From contig JBBSDW010000001.1 of assembly GCA_038240295.1 (NCBI GenBank), positions 24,875 to 88,874 on the forward strand: a DNA stretch of 64,000 nucleotides, given 5' to 3'. This document shows positions 2,165-38,791 of this stretch, piece by piece. How positions within the stretch are numbered: position 1 is the stretch's first letter; every line of letters begins with the position of its first letter. The DNA is from Candidatus Kapaibacterium sp. GTDB lineage: Bacteria > Bacteroidota > Ignavibacteria > Palsa-1295. The translations under genes were made by a program, and so were the position numbers. A model generated the notes under the pieces. It had not been told where the DNA came from, ran no database searches, and saw only the letters and a list, made by a program, of their open reading frames with translations.

Positions 2165-2950
2165 TTAAAGCCGGTCCTGCTGTGTGACATTGATCGACCG
2201 CGTATTTCGAATAAGCTTGGCAAAACGGTGCGAAGCCATTACGTCCTTCGGATCGTCTTCCGTCTTCGTTGCAGTCTGCGGAGCGGCTACGCTATTCTGA
2301 GCAACTTCACCGGCATGCGAGGGTGCCTGAGTGGTGGCTTGAGGAGCAACAATATATTCCTTGACGATCTTGATGCGCTCGGCAGGCTGGGCCTGCGCTG
2401 GAGCATTTTGTGCTTGCGGCGCCGGAATCGCGGCCGCTGAGTTGGCTTGATTTGCCGCAACGTCATTGGTTGTAGCACTCTTCTGCATACCGTTATGCGC
2501 AACAACTACTTGATTTTGCTGATCTGCAGAGTGCGTAAGATACCAGGTAGAACCAATGGCAAGCAGGAGGAGCAGCAATGCCGGAGACAGACGTTTCGTC
2601 CATGTTTTCATGCGACGATCGGTTGCAACAGTCGCGACGATCACGTGATCTTCGCTACGCGGCTGGATTACCGGCGCCGCTTCTAATTGCGGAACGCTCG
2701 TCAGCATCGACTGCAACCTGGCACGCGTTCGCTGATCGACAGAAGCGGAAAGTTGGAACCGAGCATCCGATTCCGAAGCGTGAATGGCACCTCGAACGAC
2801 GAGATACTCACGAAGGATCTTGCGTGCATCTGCGTGCGTAGCAAGACGTTCGAAGAGTTCGACTTCAAGCTCTTTACGCATCAATTCACCATCGAGGTAA
2901 CTGACGATCAGTTCTTCGGTTGTTGAATGCGCCTGTTGCGATGTATTCAT
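2165..2950 (-). CDS. Anti-sigma factor, single-pass membrane protein
   Basis: N-terminal EELIVSYLDGEL..ELE helix typical of the anti-sigma N-domain. TM segment LSPALLLLLLAIGSTWYL. Immediately downstream of the ECF sigma gene. Confidence 0.6.
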   Translation of the reverse strand: MNTSQQAHSTTEELIVSYLDGELMRKELEVELFERLATHADARKILREYLVVRGAIHASESDARFQLSASVDQRTRARLQSMLTSVPQLEAAPVIQPRSEDHVIVATVATDRRMKTWTKRLSPALLLLLLAIGSTWYLTHSADQQNQVVVAHNGMQKSATTNDVAANQANSAAAIPAPQAQNAPAQAQPAERIKIVKEYIVAPQATTQAPSHAGEVAQNSVAAPQTATKTEDDPKDVMASHRFAKLIRNTRSINVTQQDRL

Positions 2951-2964
2951 ATATCTGATTCTGT

Positions 2965-3786
2965 TCAGGGCTCGGGGACATCGGGTACTAACCCGTATGC
3001 CTCGTCGCCAATGATCGGCAGGAGCACCTTTCGGAGTCTTGCCTTCGCTCTAAAAATTCTAATACGGATTGTCGAAAGAGATGTTCCGGTCATCTTCCCG
3101 ATCTCATCGTATGTCATGCCTTCATAGTCGCTGAGAAGCAATGCCTCTCGGTATGTCTCGGGCAGCGATGCGATTGCTTTCAGCAGCAGATCGGTCTGCT
3201 CTTTCTTCGACATTCGCTCGAGCGGATCGTCGATCACTGAGAATGCACTCCGGACATCTGCTCGAACGTCTTCATCAAAATTTTCTGCGTCCCCGACTCG
3301 TTCGGTCCGCATGACGTGCTGCACAAACTTTCGCTTGGAGATCAAGCAGGTATGTCTGGTCACCGTAAAGATCCAGGCTCTGAAATCGCCGCCAACGAAC
3401 GTATGCTGATACTGCGTCACCCGCAGAAATACTTCCTGAAACGTGTCGTCGACGTGAGCAGCGTCCATTCCCGCAGAGTAGAGCGCACGGGCGCAATACG
3501 CGTAGATATTGCTCTTATACCGATCGTACATTTTGAGGAACGCCGACTGACTCCCCTGCTGGAACAATCTGAAGAGCGCCTCGTCGCTATCCGGATTTTC
3601 AATGAACTGACCTTCGTGCGAAGGATTTTCGGATTCCTGAGCGCCCGTTTGCACCCTCCGAGAGTATTGCTTTCGCGATGCCTCGTTTCTGGCATCGTTC
3701 AGCAACGGATCGGACGACGCAGCGCCGAAGCCCTGGGTCTCCTGATCGTTCTCCGAATGATCGTGCGTTTCGCTTGAAACCGACAT
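2965..3786 (-). CDS. RNA polymerase ECF-type sigma-70 factor with a ~90 aa acidic N-terminal extension
   Basis: Region 2 (DTFQEVFLRV..FRAWIFTVTRHTCLISKRK) and region 4 HTH (LPETYREALLLSDYEGMTYDEIGKMTGTSLSTIRIRIFRAKARLRK). Confidence 0.85.
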   Translation of the reverse strand: MSVSSETHDHSENDQETQGFGAASSDPLLNDARNEASRKQYSRRVQTGAQESENPSHEGQFIENPDSDEALFRLFQQGSQSAFLKMYDRYKSNIYAYCARALYSAGMDAAHVDDTFQEVFLRVTQYQHTFVGGDFRAWIFTVTRHTCLISKRKFVQHVMRTERVGDAENFDEDVRADVRSAFSVIDDPLERMSKKEQTDLLLKAIASLPETYREALLLSDYEGMTYDEIGKMTGTSLSTIRIRIFRAKARLRKVLLPIIGDEAYGLVPDVPEP

Positions 3787-4525
3787 TGCTGAAGAAAAGA
3801 GAGCGTTCGCGCCCCCGTGTTAGCGATCGCGGCTGGCGATCAGATCCGATAGTTCTAGCAACGATGCGCTGCGCTAATCGAGCGCTCAGCATCGTTGCCC
3901 GCGGTTTTCCGCAATCCCATCTTTAGGCCGCGCCTCTTATGCAGCAATAGCCGGGGCTCAATCTCGCCCGAACCACACTACCCAATAAGTCACGTCAAGG
4001 AAAAGAATTACACCTCGAGCGGGAAATATCTCAGCTTTATCGAGGTCTCTGACAAGGAAGTTAAATACGGTGCCGTTCCCATGACGCGTTGAAGCTCGTA
4101 CAGAATGAAGAAAAGGCTGTCTCGTTTCTAACCAGTTTCCCCAAGAAGTCGAAATATTTCGTCGAAACGACCAAAATCCTGCCTACGTAACACACCACGT
4201 GGGGATTAGTGGGCGATGAAATAGTAAAAGTGTGCAAAAATAGGATGCAGGAGAGCAAAATTAGACAAAATAATTGCCGTTTTTGGAAATAAAGTGACAC
4301 TTCGTTTGTAATTCGTTTAAGATTGTACTAAGTTTGTACGTATGCGGAGGGAATAACTACACCTTTACTTCAATGCGGTTCTGTAGTCGTTCTCTTAATT
4401 TAATGATTGGGGTCGTGATCGTTCTCCAAAAACGGTTATGACGACTCCTGACAAAGCGCCTCTGGGAAAGGTGGGTTGCCAGGTTTGCCAATGATGTGTT
4501 TACATGCTGCTCTTAATGCGATGCT

Positions 4526-6109
4526 ATGCTAACGGTAACCAAACCATATGTTGCCTCGAAAGGCAATTCCGAAATCGGCCACCTGAGCCGGTCACTTAAT
4601 GCTATGTCCGAGATGAATCCATCGGGTCCTGAGCTTCCGACTACCTTCTATCCGATGGAAGATGGCCCAGACGCACCGATTCTTATTGTGGATGATGAGC
4701 CCTTCGTTGCGGATCTCATCCACCACTGGGTACAAAATGTCTGGGATTATCCTGCAATTGTTGCTCATACAGGGGAAGAAGCGATCATCCAGATGCGCGA
4801 GCGGAATCCACGTCTTGTATTGCTCGACATCAACTTGCCCGACATCAACGGCATCGATGTACTTCGCGCGATCAAGAGTGCGAACGCGCATCTGCCGGTT
4901 GTAATGATCAGCGCGCAGGAGAGTGTCGCCACGGCGGTCGAAGCGCTCAAGGCGGGGGCCTATGACTATCTGACCAAACCGATCGATACCGAGCGGCTGC
5001 AGATCATCATTCGAAACGCTGTCACAGCCTACAGCTACCAACAGAAATTAAAGAACCTGCAAGCCGAGCTCAACAATCGCTACGACTTCAGCAATATCGT
5101 CTCGGCCGATCCCTTGATGCATGATCTCTTCAAGCTCATGCGAAAGGCGGTCAATAGCGATATCACGGTTTGCATTCTCGGTGAATCGGGAACGGGCAAA
5201 GAGCTCGTCGCCCGCGCTCTGCACGCAAACGGATCGAGAAAAGACAAAGCATTCCAGGTGGTTAATTGTGCTGCCATTCCTCACGAGCTGCTCGAATCCG
5301 AACTCTTCGGACATGAGCGTGGAAGCTTCACCGGTGCGATCGGCAGAAAGATCGGCAAGTTCGAGGCAGCACATGGCGGGACGCTCTTCCTCGATGAAAT
5401 TGGCGATATGGAGCTCACGCTTCAGGTAAAACTCTTACGCGCCATTCAGCAGCGAGAGTTCGAACGAGTGGGCGGCACTGAAACCGTTCGCGTCGATGTC
5501 CGAATCGTCTGTGCAACGAACGCCGAGCTTCGCGAGCTTATCCAGCAGCGCAAATTCCGCGAAGACCTTTATTATCGAATCTCTACTTTCCCGATCTTGC
5601 TTCCACCGCTTCGCGATCGCAAAGGCGATGTGTTGTTGCTCGCCGAGACATTCCTTCGCCGCTTCAGCGAGCGGCAGGGACGGGAGATCACGAAGATCCA
5701 TCCGCTTGCGATACAGGCGATGATGGCTTATAACTGGCCCGGAAATATTCGTGAACTCGAAAGCACGATCGAACGCGCGGTGCTTATCTGCGACAAAGAT
5801 GAAGTGCTCTTAAGCGATCTGCCGATCCCAATTCGGGAATGTGCGGAGGTCAATTCGCAAGCAGCGCCGATGTACGAACTTGAGGATTACTTCGATGCCG
5901 AGCAGAACCGCGTCGTGCTTCCGCTCGAACAGTTGAAGCAGCTCGCGATCAAGCATGCACTCGATGCCTGCGACGGAAATATTTCCGAGGCATCGGTCAA
6001 GCTCGACATCTCCAGATCGACGATGTACCGATTGCTCGAGATCTACAACATACGCACCGAGAATGGCGTCGCTCACGCATCGCATTCGGCAGCAGTTGCG
6101 GTCGGTTAA
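4526..6109 (+). CDS. Sigma-54-dependent response regulator (NtrC family): receiver + AAA+ sigma-54 activator + Fis-type HTH
   Basis: Receiver domain (ILIVDDEP...[15 protein letters not shown]...KPID). Walker [24 protein letters not shown] (GAFTGA-like), C-terminal HTH. The true start may be the internal MSEMNPS. Confidence 0.9.
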
Positions 6110-8478: not shown

Positions 8479-9162
8479 TTAGTGGATCGGTGGTAAGTGA
8501 CGATCGATCAGGTAGAGCAATGGAAACAGGAATATCCAAATCACGTCGACAAAGTGCCAGTACAATCCCACAAGTTCGACTGGCGCGTGATACTCGGGGG
8601 AGAATCTTCCCTTCGCTGCCTTCACGAGTATCCATGTCATGAGGCCAAGCCCGATGATCATGTGTATCGCATGGATCCCGGTCATCACAAAATAGAAGTA
8701 AACGAACATCTCAACCTTGCCGGCGAAGGGTCCGTGATACTGAAAATCGAGGCCAGGGATCAGGTGCTCATCCCATTTATGGATGTACTCGGTGAACTTG
8801 ATGCCCAGGAAGGTCATGCCCAGCAGCATCGTCAAGGCGACAAAAATGATGATGAGCTTTTTATCCTTGCGTGCCTGGGCCGACCACACTGCGAGCGCCA
8901 TTGTAAGCGACGAGCAGATGAGGACGCCAGTATTGATCGTGCCGAGTTCCACGTTCAGGAATCCGCTGCCGATCGCGAACGCCTCCGGATTCATCGAGCG
9001 ATAGAGACTATAGGCCATAAAGAGCACACCGAAGAACATGATCTCGGTTACGAGAAATGTCCACATCCCAAGCGAACCCGCCTCGCGCTGTTGCTCGAGG
9101 TCTTCGAAGTGATGGGCCAATGCGGCGTGCGCGCCTTTTTTATGTGTTGCTTCTGTTGACAA
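8479..9162 (-). CDS. ctaE: Cytochrome c oxidase subunit III
   Basis: 227 aa polytopic protein ([16 protein letters not shown]...[11 protein letters not shown]) typical of subunit III. Confidence 0.85.
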
Positions 9163-9234
9163 TGTCGATTACCGATGTGGGGTACGCTTTAGCTTGCCCC
9201 AATCAATCTTTCAAATAGCTGTTCTGTAAATCCA

Positions 9235-29658: not shown

Positions 29659-29691
29659 CACACATCGTGAATTGCAGAACGGACATGAATG

Positions 29692-29724
29692 CTCCCTCAC
29701 TCGTGAGGGAGTTTTTCATTTTGG
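29692..29724 (+). terminator. Rho-independent terminator after katE
   Basis: Hairpin ctccctcac-tcg-tgagggag followed by TTTTTCATTTT. Confidence 0.65.
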
Positions 29725-32320: not shown

Positions 32321-32422
32321 CGACACCTGACACCCGACACCGGACACCTGACCCCTGACGCCCGACACCTGACGCCCGACACCGGACGCCCGACACCGGA
32401 CGCCCTGCACCCACCCGACACC
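32321..32422. repeat. Heptanucleotide tandem repeat (GACRCCN, ~14 units) in a divergent intergenic region
   Basis: Direct reading gives cgacacct gacaccc gacaccg gacacct gacccct gacgccc gacacct gacgccc gacaccg gacgccc gacaccg gacgccc ... Confidence 0.8.
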
Positions 32423-32522: not shown

Positions 32523-35243
32523 ATGGCTAAACAGCAGCAACGTACGAACGCGCGCACGCAGCAGGAGCGCAAGACTTCAACCAAATCTTCTTCACGAAGC
32601 CTTGACGACATGCGCAACGGTTTGCGCACTGGCGACCCAGCCGGTCTGCTTCCTGAAAAATGGAAAGACCTGATCTGCATCGTAGTGATCTTCCTTTCGC
32701 TCATTATCTTTTTTGGGAAGGTGCTCGACAAAGAGCATACGTTCAACGCCGGCGATAACGTCGCAAGCGAAAGCTTTAAGCCATTCGTCGAGCAAGCTGC
32801 CAAAGATGGCGTGAGCGTGCCGCAGTGGATACCGAATATTTTTAGCGGCATGCCGGCTTTTGCTGCGCTCGTGGTGACAGGCGAGCGTACGAATGATATC
32901 GTTCACGAAATTTTCGACGTGATCCAGCAACTCCCGATGGCGCTCGCCGGCAACAGTGATGCGATGGCGCAGATCTGGCATTATTTCATCTTGGGACTCG
33001 GCGTGTACCTGCTTCTTCGTGTCGGTAGAAAAACTTCATGGCTGCCAGCGCTTTTTGGTGCCTTCAGCACGATGTTCTCGACGTGGATCATTACCTACGT
33101 CATGATCGGGCACAATACGAAAGTGTTCGCAATCATGACGATGCCCTACATCTTTCTCGCGGTTGAAAAACTTCGCGTCGAAAAACTTGGATGGCGCACC
33201 GCGGTTTTCTGGTCAGCAATCTTAGGAATCGCAGTCCACTTTCTTCTCGAGTCGACGCACATGCAGATGGTGTTCTACATCTTCCTCGCGTTGCTCCTTT
33301 ATTTTATTGTTGGACTTGTCACCGATCTCATTCGGAAATCTGGCGTTGTTAGCACGATTCGCGCTGGGGTGATCGCGCTTTGTATGGTCGGTCTCGCGTT
33401 CGCGATGAGTGCGGACAGATATATGGCTACGCTGGGCTATGAGCCTTATTCGATTCGTGGTTCGGCACCGATCGTCGATACAAAAACGGATGCCGCAAAA
33501 AGTGCATCGAGCACTGCTGGTGTTGATAAGACCGGCGGACTCGATTGGAATTACGCAACGCAATGGTCGTTCTCGCCCGGCGAGATGATCACGTTCATCG
33601 TGCCTGCCTGGTTCGGTTTCGGCAAGCTTCCCTATTCCGGCAGTGAATTGAATGTTCCCGAGGGCACACCGGTCCCAACGTATTGGGGTCAAATGAACGG
33701 CACCGACGCCGCGAATTACACCGGCATCGTGGTGTTCTTCCTCGCGCTAATCGGCATTGTCGTGCTCTGGAAACGAGACCGGCTCGTACCCGCTCTTGCG
33801 ATCATTAGTCTCTTCGCGCTGATATTATCCTTTGGGGGCAACCTGCCGATTCTGTTCGGGCCGATGTTCCATGCTTTCCCGATGTTCGATAAATTTCGAG
33901 CGCCGATGATGGCGCTCGTTTTGATGCAGCTAAGCTTCCCGATCATTGCTGCACTGATGCTTGAAGAGGTCTATCGCGTTTGGAAAAACCGCGACCGAGT
34001 GGAGGGTCTGCAGCTTGAGAAATATTTCAAGTACGCCATGATCGTCGCTGGCGCACTCCTTGTCATCTTCCTTGTTGGCCGTGGCGGATTCGAAGGTTCG
34101 ATCAAATCGAGTATTGCGAAGAGCGGCAAACCTTACGTATCGACTGTCGCTGCGCTGAGCGACCTCGCGGCTTCTACGGCTATGAATGACGCGATGATCT
34201 GCATGTTCATCGCTGCGCTTGCTTGCGGATTGATCTGGTGGTTCGTAAAAAAGCAGTCGATCTCACCGCTTATTCTGGGGCTTGCTATCCTCCTACTTAC
34301 TGTGATCGATCTCTGGCGCGTCGATAGCCGTCCGTTCGATGTAACGACCAAAGCAGACTACGAGAACAATTTCAAAGATCACGATTACGATCAGTTTATC
34401 AAACAGGATAAATCGCTCTATCGCGTGATCGATATGAACGAACCGATGTCGAACGTGCCGGTAAGTTATGGTTTCCAGACAATCGCTGGTTATCATGCGG
34501 CGAAGATGCGTGAATATCAGGACGTCGTTGATATCACGGGAGACGGCGGCGGCAATGCGATCGTCAATCCGATCATGTGGAATTTGCTGAACACGAAATA
34601 CATTATCGCGAACGGTGCCGTCTCGCAGGATCAACAGCGGTTTGTACCTGTTTTCCAATCGCGTGAGCCTGCTGCTGCTGGACAAGACGGAAAGCCAGGC
34701 CAGGCGACACTCGTCTGGATGAATCCGCAGGCATTGCCACGCGTGCTTCTCGTACCCAAATATGAGATTCACGCTCCGCTTGATATTCTTCATGCGATGC
34801 ACGATGGCACCTTCGATCCACGACAGACGGTGATGTTCGATAAAGAACCAGCGGGACTCGGCACCCTGCCGGGTACGCCCATCGATACGACAAAAGAGCG
34901 CGCCGTCGTGACGAGCTACAAGAACGAATCGGTCGAGATCAAAGCAACCGCTGCGACAGATCGACTCATGTTCATGTCCGACACCTGGTATCCGGACTGG
35001 AGTGCCACCATCGACGGAAAGCCAACCACGATCTACAAAGCCGATTATGCTTTCCGCGCAGTGAAAGTACCTGCGGGCGATCACACGATCAAATTCACGT
35101 TCGAAGATCCGCGATACGCCACTGGCAAAGCGATCTCTCTAACCGCAAACATCCTCGCGATCGTAGGACTCATTGCAGGTCTCGGAAGCGTCCTAACCGG
35201 ACGCAAGAAGAAAGAAGTAGTCGTCGAAGACGAGATAGTTTAA
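32523..35243 (+). CDS. Large polytopic membrane protein, YfhO-family-like (putative glycosyltransferase / membrane-embedded glycan modifier)
   Basis: 906 aa, about 13 predicted TM helices in the first ~600 aa, then a soluble C-terminal domain and a final TM helix. Resembles YfhO-family proteins of Bacteroidota. The true start may be the internal MRNGLRT. Confidence 0.45.
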   Translation: MAKQQQRTNARTQQERKTSTKSSSRSLDDMRNGLRTGDPAGLLPEKWKDLICIVVIFLSLIIFFGKVLDKEHTFNAGDNVASESFKPFVEQAAKDGVSVPQWIPNIFSGMPAFAALVVTGERTNDIVHEIFDVIQQLPMALAGNSDAMAQIWHYFILGLGVYLLLRVGRKTSWLPALFGAFSTMFSTWIITYVMIGHNTKVFAIMTMPYIFLAVEKLRVEKLGWRTAVFWSAILGIAVHFLLESTHMQMVFYIFLALLLYFIVGLVTDLIRKSGVVSTIRAGVIALCMVGLAFAMSADRYMATLGYEPYSIRGSAPIVDTKTDAAKSASSTAGVDKTGGLDWNYATQWSFSPGEMITFIVPAWFGFGKLPYSGSELNVPEGTPVPTYWGQMNGTDAANYTGIVVFFLALIGIVVLWKRDRLVPALAIISLFALILSFGGNLPILFGPMFHAFPMFDKFRAPMMALVLMQLSFPIIAALMLEEVYRVWKNRDRVEGLQLEKYFKYAMIVAGALLVIFLVGRGGFEGSIKSSIAKSGKPYVSTVAALSDLAASTAMNDAMICMFIAALACGLIWWFVKKQSISPLILGLAILLLTVIDLWRVDSRPFDVTTKADYENNFKDHDYDQFIKQDKSLYRVIDMNEPMSNVPVSYGFQTIAGYHAAKMREYQDVVDITGDGGGNAIVNPIMWNLLNTKYIIANGAVSQDQQRFVPVFQSREPAAAGQDGKPGQATLVWMNPQALPRVLLVPKYEIHAPLDILHAMHDGTFDPRQTVMFDKEPAGLGTLPGTPIDTTKERAVVTSYKNESVEIKATAATDRLMFMSDTWYPDWSATIDGKPTTIYKADYAFRAVKVPAGDHTIKFTFEDPRYATGKAISLTANILAIVGLIAGLGSVLTGRKKKEVVVEDEIV

Positions 35244-35308
35244 TTTAAGACTTTAGCGCTGCCTATATTGGTGCCCACATTCATGGGCACCTTACGGACA
35301 CGTGCAAT

Positions 35309-35360
35309 CCCCCCGCCTCTGAAAGAGGAGGGGGTTAGGGGGTGGTGTGGTTGGGGCAGC
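35309..35360. repeat. Left ~45 bp inverted repeat flanking the DUF559 gene; contains a hairpin
   Basis: cctctgaaagaggagggggttagggggtggtgtggttggggcagc. Its reverse complement is found at 35828-35880 (cctctgaaagaggagggggttgggggtggtgtagttggggctgcc). Confidence 0.75.
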
Positions 35361-35379
35361 ACAATATTTGGATTAGCAG

Positions 35380-35805
35380 ATGCGAACATTCAATAGAGAA
35401 GAATTCAAGGATCTTCGCAAATCATTGCGAAACGATGCAACATTTGCGGAGCGCATTTTCTGGTATTCCTTGCGTGGCGCGCAGTTGGATGGTCGAAAGT
35501 TTCGAAGACAGCATGGCATCTTGAATTTCACTGTAGATTTTTATTGTCCAGAAGAGAAGCTGGTGATCGAGTTGGATGGCGACGTGCATGATCTTGAGGA
35601 GGTCGCTGCGTACGATGCGCCAAGGCAGCAGGTTCTGGAACGCATGGGTTGCAAGGTCTTGCGCTTCAAGAACAATGACGTTATCGAGCGAAGCGATGAG
35701 GTGATCGCGACGATCAAACAAACTTGGCAGGGACGCGAGCGCGAGTCTGTTAGGACTACACGAGTACGATCGCGGCGAGTGCGAGACTCAGGCGATTCGG
35801 GATAA
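35380..35805 (+). CDS. DUF559 endonuclease-domain protein (Vsr/PD-(D/E)xK-like)
   Basis: FRRQHGILNFTVDFYCPEEKLVIELDGDVHD...RFKNNDV matches the DUF559 signature. Confidence 0.75.
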   Translation: MRTFNREEFKDLRKSLRNDATFAERIFWYSLRGAQLDGRKFRRQHGILNFTVDFYCPEEKLVIELDGDVHDLEEVAAYDAPRQQVLERMGCKVLRFKNNDVIERSDEVIATIKQTWQGRERESVRTTRVRSRRVRDSGDSG

Positions 35806-35827
35806 TTCGGCAGCCATTGAAATTATT

Positions 35828-35880
35828 CGGCAGCCCCAACTACACCACCCCCAACCCCCTCCTCTTTCAGAGGATGGGGC
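35828..35880. repeat. Right inverted repeat of the DUF559 cassette; doubles as a bidirectional terminator hairpin followed by a T-run
   Basis: ccccaactacaccacccccaaccccctcctctttcagagg followed by atggggcttttttattt. Confidence 0.75.
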
Positions 35881-35888
35881 TTTTTTAT

Positions 35889-36665
35889 TTAAATGCGGCG
35901 CACCACCGTCGCGCTCGCTTGCGCCGTTGGAAAAATGATCATCTCCGCGATCTGAACATGCGCCGGCCGGCCTACTGACCAGATGATCGCATCTGCGATA
36001 TCCTCCGGCGAGAGCGGTGTAAAACCTTGATATACTTTTTCCGCTCGCTCGGTATCGCCGTGGAAACGTACCTCGGAAAATTCTGTCTCGACCAACCCAG
36101 GATCGATCGTCGTTACGCGAATCGCTGTCTCAACAAGATCAAGCCGCAAGCCTTTCGTGATCGCATCGACTGCATACTTCGAAGCACAATACACATTGCC
36201 CTTTGGATAGACTTCATGTCCTGCGATCGAGCCGATGTTCACAACGTGTCCCCGATTGCGCAAAACCATCCCAGGCACTACAGCCCGCGTTACGAAAAGC
36301 AAGCCCTTCACGTTCGTGTCGAGCATTTCTTCCCAATCTTCGATGTCCCCTTCCTGCAGCTTATCGAGTCCACGTGAGAGGCCTGCGTTGTTTACGAGGA
36401 TATCGATTTCGCGCTGAGCGACAGGCAGGTGCGCGAGTTGTGCAACAACAGCATCCCTATCGCGCACGTCAAGCTCGAAGACGTGAATTTCGGACTTCGG
36501 AAATTCATCCGTGAGTTCAGCCTTCAGTGCATGCAGTCGTTCGATGCGGCGGGCGCATAGAAGAAGCCTCGCTCCTTGTTTCGCAAATTCACGAGCTGTC
36601 GCACGACCGATGCCGCTTGAGGCGCCGGTGATGAAGACGAGTTTATTGGCCAGAGAGAGTGACAA
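35889..36665 (-). CDS. SDR-family NAD(P)-dependent oxidoreductase
   Basis: TGASSGIG cofactor motif, NNAG, and the catalytic YCASK. Confidence 0.9.
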   Translation of the reverse strand: MSLSLANKLVFITGASSGIGRATAREFAKQGARLLLCARRIERLHALKAELTDEFPKSEIHVFELDVRDRDAVVAQLAHLPVAQREIDILVNNAGLSRGLDKLQEGDIEDWEEMLDTNVKGLLFVTRAVVPGMVLRNRGHVVNIGSIAGHEVYPKGNVYCASKYAVDAITKGLRLDLVETAIRVTTIDPGLVETEFSEVRFHGDTERAEKVYQGFTPLSPEDIADAIIWSVGRPAHVQIAEMIIFPTAQASATVVRRI

Positions 36666-36674
36666 GGTAGGCGT

Positions 36675-37097
36675 TTATTGGTTTGATTGGCGGAAAGCTT
36701 CTGGAGTCAATAGCGCAAGCATTTCACGAGGACGGAGAATCCCGATTGCATTGCCAACATCGACCGTCAGCAGATCTTTATCACCCGTTACGAGAAATGT
36801 TGCAGCGCTCTTTATTGCCGCAGCAAGGATAAGAACATCATTGGGGTCGCGAACAACAAACTGAACTTCGAAAGGAGGTAGAATTATCTCCCACGAACGG
36901 GACAATGCTGCAAGGAACACTTCAACATCCTCTGGTTGCGCATAAACTTTCGCGATCAGGACCCTTCGGGTTTTGACAAGGATTTGATCGCTTACAATTA
37001 TCCGGTGACTCGTAACCAGATAGTGGACCAATGCACGCGAAACTCCATTTGTGGCGAACGCGGAGATGAGTACATTTGCATCTATAAAAATTTTCAA
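36675..37097 (-). CDS. PIN-domain ribonuclease toxin (VapC-like)
   Basis: MKIFIDANVLISA...LVTGDKDLL, conserved acidic PIN residues. Confidence 0.7.
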   Translation of the reverse strand: MKIFIDANVLISAFATNGVSRALVHYLVTSHRIIVSDQILVKTRRVLIAKVYAQPEDVEVFLAALSRSWEIILPPFEVQFVVRDPNDVLILAAAIKSAATFLVTGDKDLLTVDVGNAIGILRPREMLALLTPEAFRQSNQ

Positions 37098-37327
37098 GAT
37101 ACTTCGTTGAAGATATCCTCATCAGTCAAGTAACCCTTCTCGCGCGCAAGTGGGGTTATATAGTCCTCAAATTCCTTGATTTTTTTGAGCAGCAGCTGTC
37201 TTCGTAGAAGATCATTGACGATCTCGGTCGTGCCTCTATGCTCGACACTGCTTTCCTCTTCCAGCAGCGCAAATAAGTCAGGCTCAATGATCACCGTATG
37301 TTGGATATCCGTTTGGCGTGTACTCAT
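37094..37327 (-). CDS. Putative antitoxin partner of the PIN toxin (78 aa)
   Basis: Small acidic ORF overlapping the PIN gene start by 4 bp. The internal Met was chosen because the upstream part of the ORF is a degenerate duplicate of the hmgA 3' end. Confidence 0.4.
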   Translation of the reverse strand: MSTRQTDIQHTVIIEPDLFALLEEESSVEHRGTTEIVNDLLRRQLLLKKIKEFEDYITPLAREKGYLTDEDIFNEVS

Positions 37328-37648
37328 ACTCGTTACTACAAAACAGAAATACGGAAAGTTTATTCTTACGTTTTCGAACCCTCTTTCTTCTCCTCCCAGC
37401 TTCCCCAGTGTTTTTCCACTCTGCGACTTCTCGGCTGGCAGGACGATCGTGAGCGGCTGGCAACAGCAGCCTTTCTCATGCGTTAGCAATCGCGTGCTGG
37501 GCGGCATTAGCCTTGTTCGATCATAAAAGACTTTTATCTGCTCCATACAAGTTCTCCCTTTTTGATTCCATCAGTCAGGTAGGCTGGTATGAAAAAGCCG
37601 ACACCGTTCAAACGCTTTATGACCGAACAAACGAAGTGTTTCGAATTT

Positions 37649-38791
37649 TTACTTCGGCTGGGTTTCCTCTTTCTTCTCCTCCCAGCTTCCCCAGTATTCT
37701 TTCCACTCTGCGGCCTCGGCGGCGGGGGCGATCGTGAGAGGGTGTCGGGCGTCGATCATCATGGCCATTTCGTTCGTGCGCTTCAGGTTGTTTTGATTGC
37801 GCAGTGCCTTCGGATGCGGGCCGTGATGGATGCCTTGCGGGTGGAGCGTCATCATTGCCGCTTCGATGTTGTCGCGTGAGAAGAAATCGCCGTCGTGATA
37901 AAACAGCACTTCATCGTAGTCGGTGTTGCGATGGTAGAACGGCACCTTCAACGTGTCCTGATCCTCTTCGATGGGACGCGGCAAGAATGAGCAGACGACA
38001 AAATTCTCGGCCATGAACGTGGTGTGTACCGGCGGCGGAAGATGCACTCGTGGCGAGATGACTGGACGGATATCGCGCATGTTGATCTTGAACACTGTCA
38101 AGTCGCCGCGCCAGCCGACGATGTCGATCGGATTATAGGGATAGAAGATCGAGGTCCACTCACCCAGGCGCTTGATGCGGATCTCGTATTCTTTGCCGTT
38201 CGGGCCAGGGTCAACATATTCCGTGAACTCAGGTATCGTAAGTGCACCGTTATCATACAGTGCGTGCATACCAATGAGCCCCTTCTGCTCAGGCGTCGGC
38301 GGAAGTATCTCGGAATGCGCTTCGACGTGGACGAAAAAATTATCGGTCGTCGTCGGGACGAATCGATACGTTGTCGCGCGAGGTATGACGATGTAATCGC
38401 CCTTCTCGAAATCGAGCACACCAAAATCTGTTTCGAGTTTTCCTTCGCCTTGATGCACGAAATAGAGTTCGTCACCATCGGCATTGCGATAATAGGCTGG
38501 CGATGCCTCCGAGCGACGCGAGATCGAGATGATCAGATCGTCGTTATAAAGGATCGGGATCGACCATCCATTCTTATCCTTCAGATCGGTCGGTTCGACC
38601 TTGTTGAGATAGAACGCATGCGGTCGAAGCTTCCCCTCGATGCGTGTCCAGCTCGTGGGTGGATGTGCGTGGTAGAGATGCGACACGCGTCCAAAAAATC
38701 CTTCGCGGCCGTGCTCTTCCTCGAATGTACCTTCGGGCAAAGCTACGTGCGGCTGCCGCGTCGCGCGGCCTTTCATGATCGGAAAATTCAT
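37649..38791 (-). CDS. hmgA: Homogentisate 1,2-dioxygenase
   Basis: AYYRNADGDELYFVHQGEG and PFYHRNTDYDEVLFYHDG...HPQGIHHGPHP align with HGD motifs (FYNSDGDFLIVPQKG; PPYYHRN...HGPD). Confidence 0.8.
   Translation of the reverse strand: MNFPIMKGRATRQPHVALPEGTFEEEHGREGFFGRVSHLYHAHPPTSWTRIEGKLRPHAFYLNKVEPTDLKDKNGWSIPILYNDDLIISISRRSEASPAYYRNADGDELYFVHQGEGKLETDFGVLDFEKGDYIVIPRATTYRFVPTTTDNFFVHVEAHSEILPPTPEQKGLIGMHALYDNGALTIPEFTEYVDPGPNGKEYEIRIKRLGEWTSIFYPYNPIDIVGWRGDLTVFKINMRDIRPVISPRVHLPPPVHTTFMAENFVVCSFLPRPIEEDQDTLKVPFYHRNTDYDEVLFYHDGDFFSRDNIEAAMMTLHPQGIHHGPHPKALRNQNNLKRTNEMAMMIDARHPLTIAPAAEAAEWKEYWGSWEEKKEETQPK

Follow-up and report, generated by a model that had tools for sequence, protein, structure and literature searches.

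Background

BoxC repeats of Escherichia coli have been known since the 1990s. They were the first of the bacterial 'intrastrand triplex motifs' and were followed by PIT elements (Hoyne and Maher 2000, 2002) and then by TM_ECO (Holder et al. 2015, PMC4666352). Here we describe two units of this class in a stretch of 64,000 nucleotides of Candidatus Kapaibacterium sp. (GenBank assembly GCA_038240295.1, contig JBBSDW010000001.1, positions 24,875 to 88,874 of the forward strand), which we call the window. The two units lie inverted on either side of a gene for a small nuclease of the DUF559 family. Comparison with other loci reveals that units of the same kind, mostly in the same orientation, accompany nearly all of the related DUF559 genes that we compared. 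We propose that gene and units together form a selfish cassette of about 570 bp, in which the ends are the inverted triplex units and the nuclease acts on them, a reading for which we see the balance as even.

A unit of the described class runs from a C-rich arm through a loop of 3-6 nt, a G-rich arm and a second loop of about 3 nt to a mirrored G-rich segment (class II purine motif). TM_ECO reads CCCTCNCCC-N3-6-GGGNGAGGG-N3-GGGNGAGGG, with TTA or CCG as the second loop, and strain MG1655 has 23 copies, five as inverted doublets (PMC4666352). The TM_ECO triplex is stable in vitro, as seen by circular dichroism and nuclear magnetic resonance (Holder et al. 2015, PMC4666352). The genes that neighbor TM_ECO share no common function, the loci show raised local rearrangement, and purine-motif triplexes cannot form in RNA (Holder et al., PMC4666352). 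For PIT elements, the same paper cites work by Hoyne and Maher (2002), in which they acted in E. coli neither as promoters nor as terminators, as well as a block of DNA polymerase by PIT units in vitro.

Neither the repeat class nor the protein family is new in itself; the new part is their pairing and the cassette that results from it. In open-access papers and bioRxiv we found no report that links DUF559, ycjD or Vsr-like nucleases with BoxC, PIT or triplex repeats; such a report in a subscription journal is possible.

Results

Triplex units on both sides of the DUF559 gene

The flanks of the DUF559 gene form inverted repeats at 35310-35369 and 35821-35879. When the left flank is locally aligned with the reverse complement of the right one, 52 of 60 positions are identical, with one 1-nt indel, and a repeat scan returns the same inverted pair split in two pieces (I1 and I2). 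An earlier note on this DNA, made from the letters alone, had described near-perfect inverted repeats with about three mismatches, and over the 45 nt that it quoted we count two mismatches and one indel. It had also placed a G/C hairpin in each copy, which agrees with the folding of both arms as single-stranded DNA (-13.6 and -10.8 kcal/mol, z about -3). The 19-mer CCTCTGAAAGAGGAGGGGG, common to both arms, occurs exactly twice in the window, once per strand, while shuffled sequences lead to an expectation of 0.01. No third arm copy was found in the 64 kb by searching for the 19-mer and a 29-mer with up to three mismatches, by the whole-window repeat scan or by the strict unit detector described below. 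We dropped a loose hairpin match at 29691-29712, which is without a tail.

The earlier note had remarked that the arms are longer than a terminator needs. This is correct, but the arms are more than generic palindromes or long terminators: each is composed of a hairpin and a mirror tail. From 5' to 3', a unit begins with a pyrimidine arm, which a loop joins to a purine arm; a short linker then leads to a G/T tail, the mirror of the purine arm (GAGGAGGGGG and GGGGGTGGTG in the window). Reading the tail backwards gives the purine arm with T in place of each A, and the mirror is complete in both window units (10/10 positions, G to G and A to T). The pyrimidine arms, also of 10 nt, have one mismatch each to the purine arm. 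Judged by base order, such a mirror tail is the pairing code of an antiparallel intrastrand purine-motif triplex (G.GC, T.AT), and by the same token the window arms belong to the BoxC/PIT/TM class, with a different arm sequence.

The window units share with BoxC, PIT and TM_ECO the whole order of segments given above, and the TTA second loop of the left unit is also that of TM_ECO type A. In both cases the units are single or arranged in inverted doublets, highly conserved within each genome, dispersed and located at variable loci. They differ in the arms, which are CCCCCTCCTC/GAGGAGGGGG here and CCCTCNCCC/GGGNGAGGG in TM_ECO, and the window arms CCCCCNCCTC/GAGGAGGGGG do not match the TM_ECO consensus. 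In addition, in many relatives a GC-rich hairpin of 12-50 nt takes the place of the second loop, which published searches, with loops of at most 6-10 nt, would miss. Finally, published work found no gene or mobility function linked to the repeats, whereas the units described here bracket a nuclease gene.

Pairing of units and DUF559 genes in metagenomic loci

We compared the window with 80 DUF559 loci from metagenomes, which were picked by protein similarity alone (41-62% identity). The flanks of the DUF559 genes in these loci contain inverted and/or direct repeats far above the shuffled expectation, and all of them are units of the same kind. We considered integron attC cassettes for the long direct repeats that flank some genes and rejected them, because these repeats are actually back-to-back unit doublets on each side and the context is ordinary chromosomal. 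A mirror tail with at most one mismatch is present in 134 of the approximately 161 hairpins that adjoin DUF559 genes, as compared to 48 when the tail is matched in direct order as a control. The linker varies across loci between 2 and 6 nt, or is replaced by a second GC-rich hairpin of 12-50 nt.

The arms and tails change together. We identified 32 distinct purine arms, each with its own mirror tail (for example, AGGGAAGG/GGAAGGGT, AAAGGGAGA/AGAGGGATT and AAGGGGAGG/GGAGGGGT). Overall, arms and tails show 9 mismatches, compared to a mean of 56.7 after permuting them, and none of 10,000 permutations was as good. At the positions of the putative third strand, G lies opposite G 873 times, T opposite A 307 times and A opposite A 116 times, and all other combinations add up to 46. 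The G-tracts could also permit a G-quadruplex, but only the triplex code explains the mirror covariation. A triple helix of RNA was rejected as well, as purine-motif triplexes are reported not to form in RNA (PMC4666352).

To count units we used a strict detector, which requires 8-nt arms and allows at most one mismatch in stem and tail. Within 250 nt of DUF559 genes this detector counts 5.38 units per kb, and in the rest of the same loci 0.108 per kb, corresponding to a difference of about 50-fold, and some of these 'far' units adjoin a second DUF559 gene (locus L083, see below). A unit lies within 250 nt of 62 out of 65 DUF559 genes, but only of 6 out of 131 control open reading frames (ORFs) of the same loci, 50 of which are small (Fisher test, 5e-40). 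Units are found on both sides of 39 of the 65 genes and of a single control ORF (Fisher test, 2e-22). The innermost upstream unit lies on the gene strand in 48 cases and on the other strand in 17, while the innermost downstream unit lies on the opposite strand in 38 cases and on the gene strand in 13. The tails therefore point inward, as they do in the window. The spacing is tight, with a median of 38 nt from hairpin to ATG and of 22 nt from stop codon to hairpin. In the window, the strict detector finds exactly two units, compared to none or one in shuffled windows, and within the 64 kb they occur only at the DUF559 gene.

Presence and absence of the cassette

In two relatives (L104 and L105, 63% YfhO identity), the YfhO gene is directly followed by the gene for a short-chain dehydrogenase (SDR) and then by an HgmA-like gene, and the cassette is absent. 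The YfhO-SDR spacer of these relatives is 72-79 nt long and holds only an ordinary bidirectional terminator. In the window, the hairpin GGTGCCCACATTCATGGGCACC is probably the resident YfhO/SDR terminator stem, as found at these empty sites. In a third relative, L103, the spacer hosts an unrelated ORF of 147 aa at 8753-9196, which is a predicted membrane protein with no Pfam match, and the site is thus variable. Neither units nor DUF559 genes were found in the 44 kb of these three syntenic relatives. On this comparison of sequences the window cassette is an insertion, and the YfhO-SDR spacer is a recurrent landing site.

A second, independent cassette is found in an unrelated place, in L010, where it separates cas1 from cas2 in a cas9 locus, and it has an orthologue in L023 (Table 1). 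The cas1 ORF of L010 also runs into the upstream unit of the cassette.

Locus L083 contains, at 2632-5737, a pair of DUF559 cassettes with 99% identity, units included, as well as the gene's 3' end, with a unit, in a third copy. The array is tandem-like, with a period of about 764 nt, and is interrupted by an IS3-like orfA. This arrangement suggests unequal recombination between units; being a local tandem-like array with an IS-like ORF inside, it was rejected as evidence of transposition. Two orthologous loci (L031 and L033) share 93% identity over the DUF559 gene and only about 76% over the adjacent flank. Possible reasons are that the gene is more strongly constrained, or that the cassette underwent gene conversion or re-homing.

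Units without a DUF559 gene

A search of species-representative genomes with the 19-mer returned about 17 true copies in five metagenome-assembled genomes (MAGs) assigned to Ignavibacteriota, Kapaibacteria or 'Bacteroidetes'. Two of these copies abut DUF559 genes, with the same geometry as in the window. Gene-less units occur several times per genome in the five MAGs, either single or as inverted doublets. Some lie in frame within genes, namely mfd, lnt and a gene for a CCG-domain Fe-S protein, with Pfam domains on both sides. Because of these domains on both sides, we conclude that the units in mfd, lnt, cas1 and the CCG gene arrived as insertions. Single units inside ORFs are apparently tolerated as in-frame insertions of 12-19 codons, and an inverted doublet in the cas1 gene of L010 lengthens Cas1 in frame by 33 residues close to its N-terminus. 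This is a difference from TM_ECO, which was reported to be always intergenic. In locus L019, the break in a radical-SAM domain falls on a unit.

Units around ycjD in E. coli

The gene ycjD of E. coli, annotated as DUF559, lies between sapF and fabI. A TM_ECO unit is found 167 nt past its stop codon; with 23 copies spread over 4.64 Mb, chance would place about 0.004 units within 250 nt of a single gene. In the K-12 region downstream of ycjD (L106, NC_000913.3 1351190-1351420), a partial duplicate of the last 45 nt or so of the gene, together with a degenerate unit, precedes the intact TM_ECO, and ycjD itself ends inside a degenerate unit (CCCTCTCCCTGAAAGAGCGAGGGGG). The region 3' of ycjD looks like the decayed right end of a cassette.

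The presence of ycjD varies between E. coli lineages: phylogroups A, B1 and C have the gene, and B2 and other groups have eefRABCD in its place (PMC12817139). Overall, the ycjD stretch is present in 3,377 out of 5,426 complete genomes. When we group the named strains by phylogroup, the TM_ECO numbers given in the literature are 19-30 for A/B1/C, 1-2 for B2, 11 for O157 and 6-15 for D/F. In an even sample of the ranked complete genomes, those with ycjD have 15 to 31 further TM-like places (median 21, n = 37), while those without it have 2 to 20 (median 6.5, n = 22; Mann-Whitney test, 3e-9).

The DUF559 protein

The protein encoded in the cassette matches Pfam PF04480 (DUF559) over residues 10-115 with 109.9 bits (cut-off 20.6, E-value 7e-32), which bears out the family that the earlier note had given to the ORF at 35380-35805. 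It contains all 27 invariant columns of an alignment of 28 sequences. D53, E59, E64, D66, H70 and D79 are invariant in all 28, the window protein included, and from this conservation the acidic and histidine columns are putative catalytic residues. PDB 3hrl is a sequence match of the window protein (E-value 5.6e-18). We modeled the protein with AF2 (pLDDT 83, pTM 0.75) and compared the model to known structures with Foldseek. The first match was again 3hrl (E-value 5e-6, TM-score 0.85 of the target), followed by the catalytic domain of the homing endonuclease I-Bth0305I (PDB 3r3p, E-value 2e-4, TM-score 0.76-0.78 of the target) and by Vsr (1vsr, E-value 0.07), with TnsA far behind. From its predicted structure, the window protein looks like an active small nuclease, and its fold is one that a known selfish endonuclease also has.

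None of the closest DUF559 relatives exceeds 57% identity, and hence there is no recent copy for comparison. DUF559 is the sole ORF inside the cassette, which encodes no recognized transposase of the DDE or a similar type. Several database DUF559 proteins (P0003-P0005, P0019 and P0035) have additional residues at the N- or C-terminus (for example, ...PKNSTP or VFLPPPLRPLLGQEGSN) that are translated flanking units, which indicates that gene callers routinely read the repeats into the ORF.

Surroundings of the cassette

The features of the locus, and those of the related loci mentioned above, are listed in Table 1. The inner extension of the left arm is identical to the right arm at 16 of 22 positions; it is specific to this locus and lies outside the general unit. 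Near the right end, the short direct repeat that the earlier note had pointed out is found as ATAATTCGGCAGCC and ATTATTCGGCAGCC. This direct repeat, ATTCGGCAGCC, has its first copy over the stop codon and its second overlapping the inner end of the right arm, and it may be a small duplication that arose at the junction.

The right copy had also been read as a terminator. The T-run CTTTTTTATTT on which this was based is present and is a possible terminator tail for DUF559, so that the role is plausible but unconfirmed. The terminator scan makes no call at the right arm, because its stem has a mismatch, and the left arm is without a T-run. A sigma-70 promoter scan of the locus found none, comparison of the Rfam 15 covariance models with 35000-36100 gave only sub-threshold, chance-level matches, and no intron or intein context of the DUF559 gene was seen at the locus.

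Beside the cassette, a PIN-domain toxin gene (36675-37097) and an upstream small ORF, probably for the antitoxin, form a second small insertion; all three relatives (L103, L104 and L105) lack both between their SDR and HgmA-like genes. The PIN toxin region (36675-37546) is bounded by a 36-nt direct repeat (37380-37415 and 37666-37701, 94% identical), which duplicates the 3' end of the HgmA-like gene. On the other side, about 14 degenerate heptamers (CGACACC, TGACGCC or GGACGCC) are arranged in tandem at 32321-32418, between a HipA-like kinase gene and YfhO.

Table 1. Coordinates of the DUF559 cassette, its neighbors and units at related loci (positions refer to the window unless another locus is named)
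Feature	Position	Strand	Remarks
YfhO gene	32523-35243	+	Upstream neighbor
Hairpin GGTGCCCACATTCATGGGCACC, 3' of YfhO	35270-35291	+	Outside the cassette; compare the terminators of L104 and L105
Left triplex unit	35310-35347	+	Pyrimidine arm CCCCCGCCTC (35310-35319), loop TGAAA (35320-35324), purine arm GAGGAGGGGG (35325-35334), linker TTA (35335-35337), third-strand tail GGGGGTGGTG (35338-35347)
Inner extension of left arm, TGGTTGGGGCAGCACAATATTT	35348-35369	+	Stops 10 nt 5' of the ATG
DUF559 nuclease gene	35380-35805	+	141 aa, intact, Pfam PF04480
Short direct repeat, ATAATTCGGCAGCC / ATTATTCGGCAGCC	35802-35835	+	Copies at 35802-35815 and 35822-35835; D2 of the repeat scan
Inner extension of right arm	35821-35842	-	From the flank alignment
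Right triplex unit	35843-35879	-	CCCCATCCTC (35879-35870), TGAAA (35869-35865), GAGGAGGGGG (35864-35855), TT (35854-35853), GGGGGTGGTG (35852-35843); tail inward, toward the gene, as at most other loci
T-run CTTTTTTATTT	35880-35890	+	Just outside the right hairpin; abuts the stop codon (35889-35891) of the convergent SDR gene
SDR gene	35889-36665	-	Downstream neighbor, convergent
Region with the cassette, its two units and the cas1 doublet, L010	6197-7760 of MAG WY3.bin23, contig JAKAIL010000188.1		Type II CRISPR locus (cas9-cas1-cas2)
Orthologue of the L010 region, L023	about 3970-5460		
Unit in mfd, L015	5001-5036		
Unit in lnt, L003	4880-4936		
Unit in CCG Fe-S protein gene, L022	7286-7321		
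Unit in ubiE (probably), L005	7063-7098		
Unit in long ORF, L006	6158-6211		

Discussion

How the cassette may work

The mirror tail can lie back along the purine arm (G.GC, T.AT and A.AT triads), and single-stranded or supercoil-extruded DNA could therefore fold as a three-stranded hairpin. In the selfish cassette that we propose, the nuclease would recognize this folded structure and then nick or cut it, or its junction, both at the element ends and at gene-less units. Repair or strand transfer would copy units to new places, with or without the gene, and the single gene-less units and inverted doublets would be non-autonomous derivatives. The spread may resemble that of REPIN-RAYT systems, or it may proceed by homing into gene-less doublets, the halves of which would then flank the gene. 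A wider proposal, which we advance tentatively and rate somewhat below even, is that DUF559/YcjD nucleases are the dedicated enzymes of the BoxC/PIT/TM repeats and move or copy their own cassette and the gene-less units by way of the three-stranded fold. They would thus form a mobile or semi-domesticated system of REPIN-RAYT or homing type, keyed to a DNA triplex rather than to a hairpin or a sequence, and extending from E. coli to Bacteroidota and Ignavibacteriota.

The earlier note had offered two accounts of the locus, either a selfish cassette that moved as a unit or a palindromic repeat family of this genome that had captured the gene. The first stands in so far as gene and repeats are present or absent together, while movement is something that we infer, because no target-site duplication is seen and no recent transposition was caught; the triplex nature of the arms had been missed. 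The second account is not supported, since no other copy is found in the 64 kb and the pairing with DUF559 genes is near-universal. As to the comparisons that the note had recommended, the repeat is a dispersed family in related Ignavibacteriota and Kapaibacteria genomes, the orthologous YfhO-SDR sites of L104 and L105 have no cassette, and other DUF559 genes have the same kind of termini.

Several observations weigh against a mobile cassette whose nuclease acts on the units. The proposal is built on sequence comparison, and cleavage, binding or transposition was not observed. Among the 80 loci there are no near-identical cassettes in different contexts, and the one duplicated cassette (L083) is a local array. 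Also the 64-kb window of the source genome holds no gene-less copy. No target-site duplication is visible in the window, where the outer flanks read ...GCAATC before the left unit and CTTTTT after the right one, or at the cas1 doublet, which is preceded by ...CGCGATA and followed by TGTACC. Empty sites are found only in relatives with 63% YfhO identity, where the exact junctions are not readable, and the closest relative (L103, 86% YfhO identity) has a different gene at the YfhO-SDR site. Furthermore, protein similarity does not track arm type (0.536 compared to 0.537, a weak result from a crude 7-mer typing). There is thus no sign of sequence-specific co-evolution, and recognition, if there is any, would need to be of structure. 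In E. coli, dimethyl sulfate footprinting gave no evidence of a stable triplex in vivo, and mobility genes were stated to be 'never' near TM_ECO (Holder et al., PMC4666352). Some E. coli lineages without ycjD keep 13 to 20 TM-like places, and the correlation between ycjD and TM-like places is confounded by phylogeny, which makes it consistent with our proposal but no proof of it.

Alternative explanations

We weighed four other explanations, which are given here from the most to the least probable. The first is that the units are independent unstable repeats, that small foreign genes such as DUF559 land at these fragile sites, and that the nuclease has no specific relation to them. Holder et al. 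tie TM_ECO loci to raised local rearrangement (PMC4666352), the YfhO-SDR spacer is variable, with another gene in L103, and so is the sapF-fabI spot of E. coli, which hosts either ycjD or eefRABCD. The absence of tracking between protein similarity and arm type also points in this direction. However, passengers at fragile sites do not account for a pairing that is specific to DUF559 (62/65 genes) and rare at other ORFs (6/131), including 50 small ones, or for the regular inward orientation of the tails and their tight spacing to start and stop codons. Moreover, the window units are found only at the DUF559 gene, and the empty sites have no unit that could attract a gene. We therefore consider this explanation unlikely.

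The units could also control or insulate expression, acting as bidirectional terminators, as transcript stabilizers or as a throttle on a potentially toxic nuclease, in which case they would be conserved together with the gene rather than being mobile ends. Their position close to start and stop codons, with medians of 38 and 22 nt, the stability of the hairpins and the T-run after the right unit are in line with such a role. What makes it rather unlikely is that units are found also far from DUF559 genes, within mfd, lnt and cas1, and in 22 further copies in E. coli K-12. In addition, no call is made at the right arm by the terminator scan, PIT elements are described in PMC4666352, after Hoyne and Maher (2002), as acting neither as promoters nor as terminators in E. 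coli, and the mirror tail is conserved although the purine-motif triplex cannot form in RNA (PMC4666352).

In a third explanation, DUF559 is a housekeeping nuclease that benefits the host by clearing triplex or H-DNA obstacles to replication, and it adjoins the units only through co-inheritance or through a sensing by the units of when it is needed. The fold resembles that of Vsr, a repair nickase, PIT units are described as a block to DNA polymerase in vitro (as cited in PMC4666352), and the higher number of units in E. coli with ycjD could reflect tolerance rather than spread. A role in trans, however, leaves the inverted bracketing of the gene unexplained. The gene is also patchy among close relatives and absent at orthologous sites, it is inserted between cas1 and cas2, and it forms a tandem cassette array in L083. 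For these reasons, we regard repair by a host enzyme as improbable.

Lastly, the G/C hairpins in both arms and the T-run at the right one might suggest two similar terminators placed by chance around an ordinary gene, which was the case that the earlier note had set against its own proposal, but this coincidence can be dismissed, given the 52/60 arm identity, a 19-mer with an expectation of 0.01, the recurrence of units at 62 of 65 DUF559 genes and the 0 out of 10,000 permutations.

Comparison with other mobile and repeat systems

Among other known systems, the selfish cassette proposed here resembles REPIN-RAYT (REPtrons). In both, an enzyme gene has a short structured repeat on either side, in inverted copies. 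Singlets and inverted doublets of the repeat are also dispersed, in the present case in related MAGs and in E. coli, and gene-less copies outnumber the gene, as in E. coli, where one ycjD accompanies approximately 20-30 units. The enzyme is different, being a Vsr-like PD-(D/E)xK nuclease instead of an HUH Y1 transposase of the IS200/IS605-like type, and so is the repeat, which is a triplex-type unit with a mirror tail instead of a plain hairpin with a GTAG head. Further differences are that the 64-kb window has no dispersed copies and that we only infer the activity of DUF559 on the units.

I-Bth0305I, a member of the EDxHD family with a Vsr-like catalytic domain, is likewise encoded by a selfish nuclease gene with presence/absence polymorphism. 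Its gene lies in a group I intron of a phage, and the enzyme has an additional DNA-binding region, while the window gene is free-standing, encodes only 141 aa and is bracketed by repeats and not by an intron or intein. As with homing endonuclease genes, the cassette is present or absent at an otherwise conserved site, in this case between YfhO and SDR. Vsr, 3hrl (NGO0050) and E. coli YcjD belong to the same fold family as the window protein. Vsr nicks T:G mismatches in a methylation context, whereas DUF559 has no known substrate, and no Dcm-type partner gene turned up beside the window gene, although no systematic search was made.

Rickettsia palindromic elements are short structured repeats that insert in frame into genes and are tolerated there, and the gene-less units in mfd, lnt and cas1 appear to be tolerated in a similar way, which is a general resemblance. 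With transposons bounded by terminal inverted repeats and with miniature inverted-repeat transposable elements, the cassette shares its inverted ends. It differs from all these elements in that it shows no target-site duplication and has no DDE transposase, and in that its units are much shorter (about 36-60 nt) and carry the triplex code.

Conclusions

Since the 1990s, no function, origin or partner protein has been found for the BoxC/PIT/TM repeats, and the bracketing of DUF559 genes by these units offers a candidate partner. Conversely, the very large DUF559 nuclease family, for which a structure but no substrate is known, has candidate partners in the triplex units. Because the pairing is near-universal and oriented, the question can be directly tested in E. 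coli K-12, which has ycjD and about 23 TM_ECO copies. In-frame insertions in mfd, lnt and cas1, together with the cassette between cas1 and cas2, indicate that these elements reshape coding regions and defense loci. A nuclease that acts on the folded units would make this the first system, mobile or for repeat maintenance, that is keyed to a DNA triplex. In that case, the instability of the loci that bear such units would also be explained, and a structure-specific nuclease of possible practical use would be at hand.

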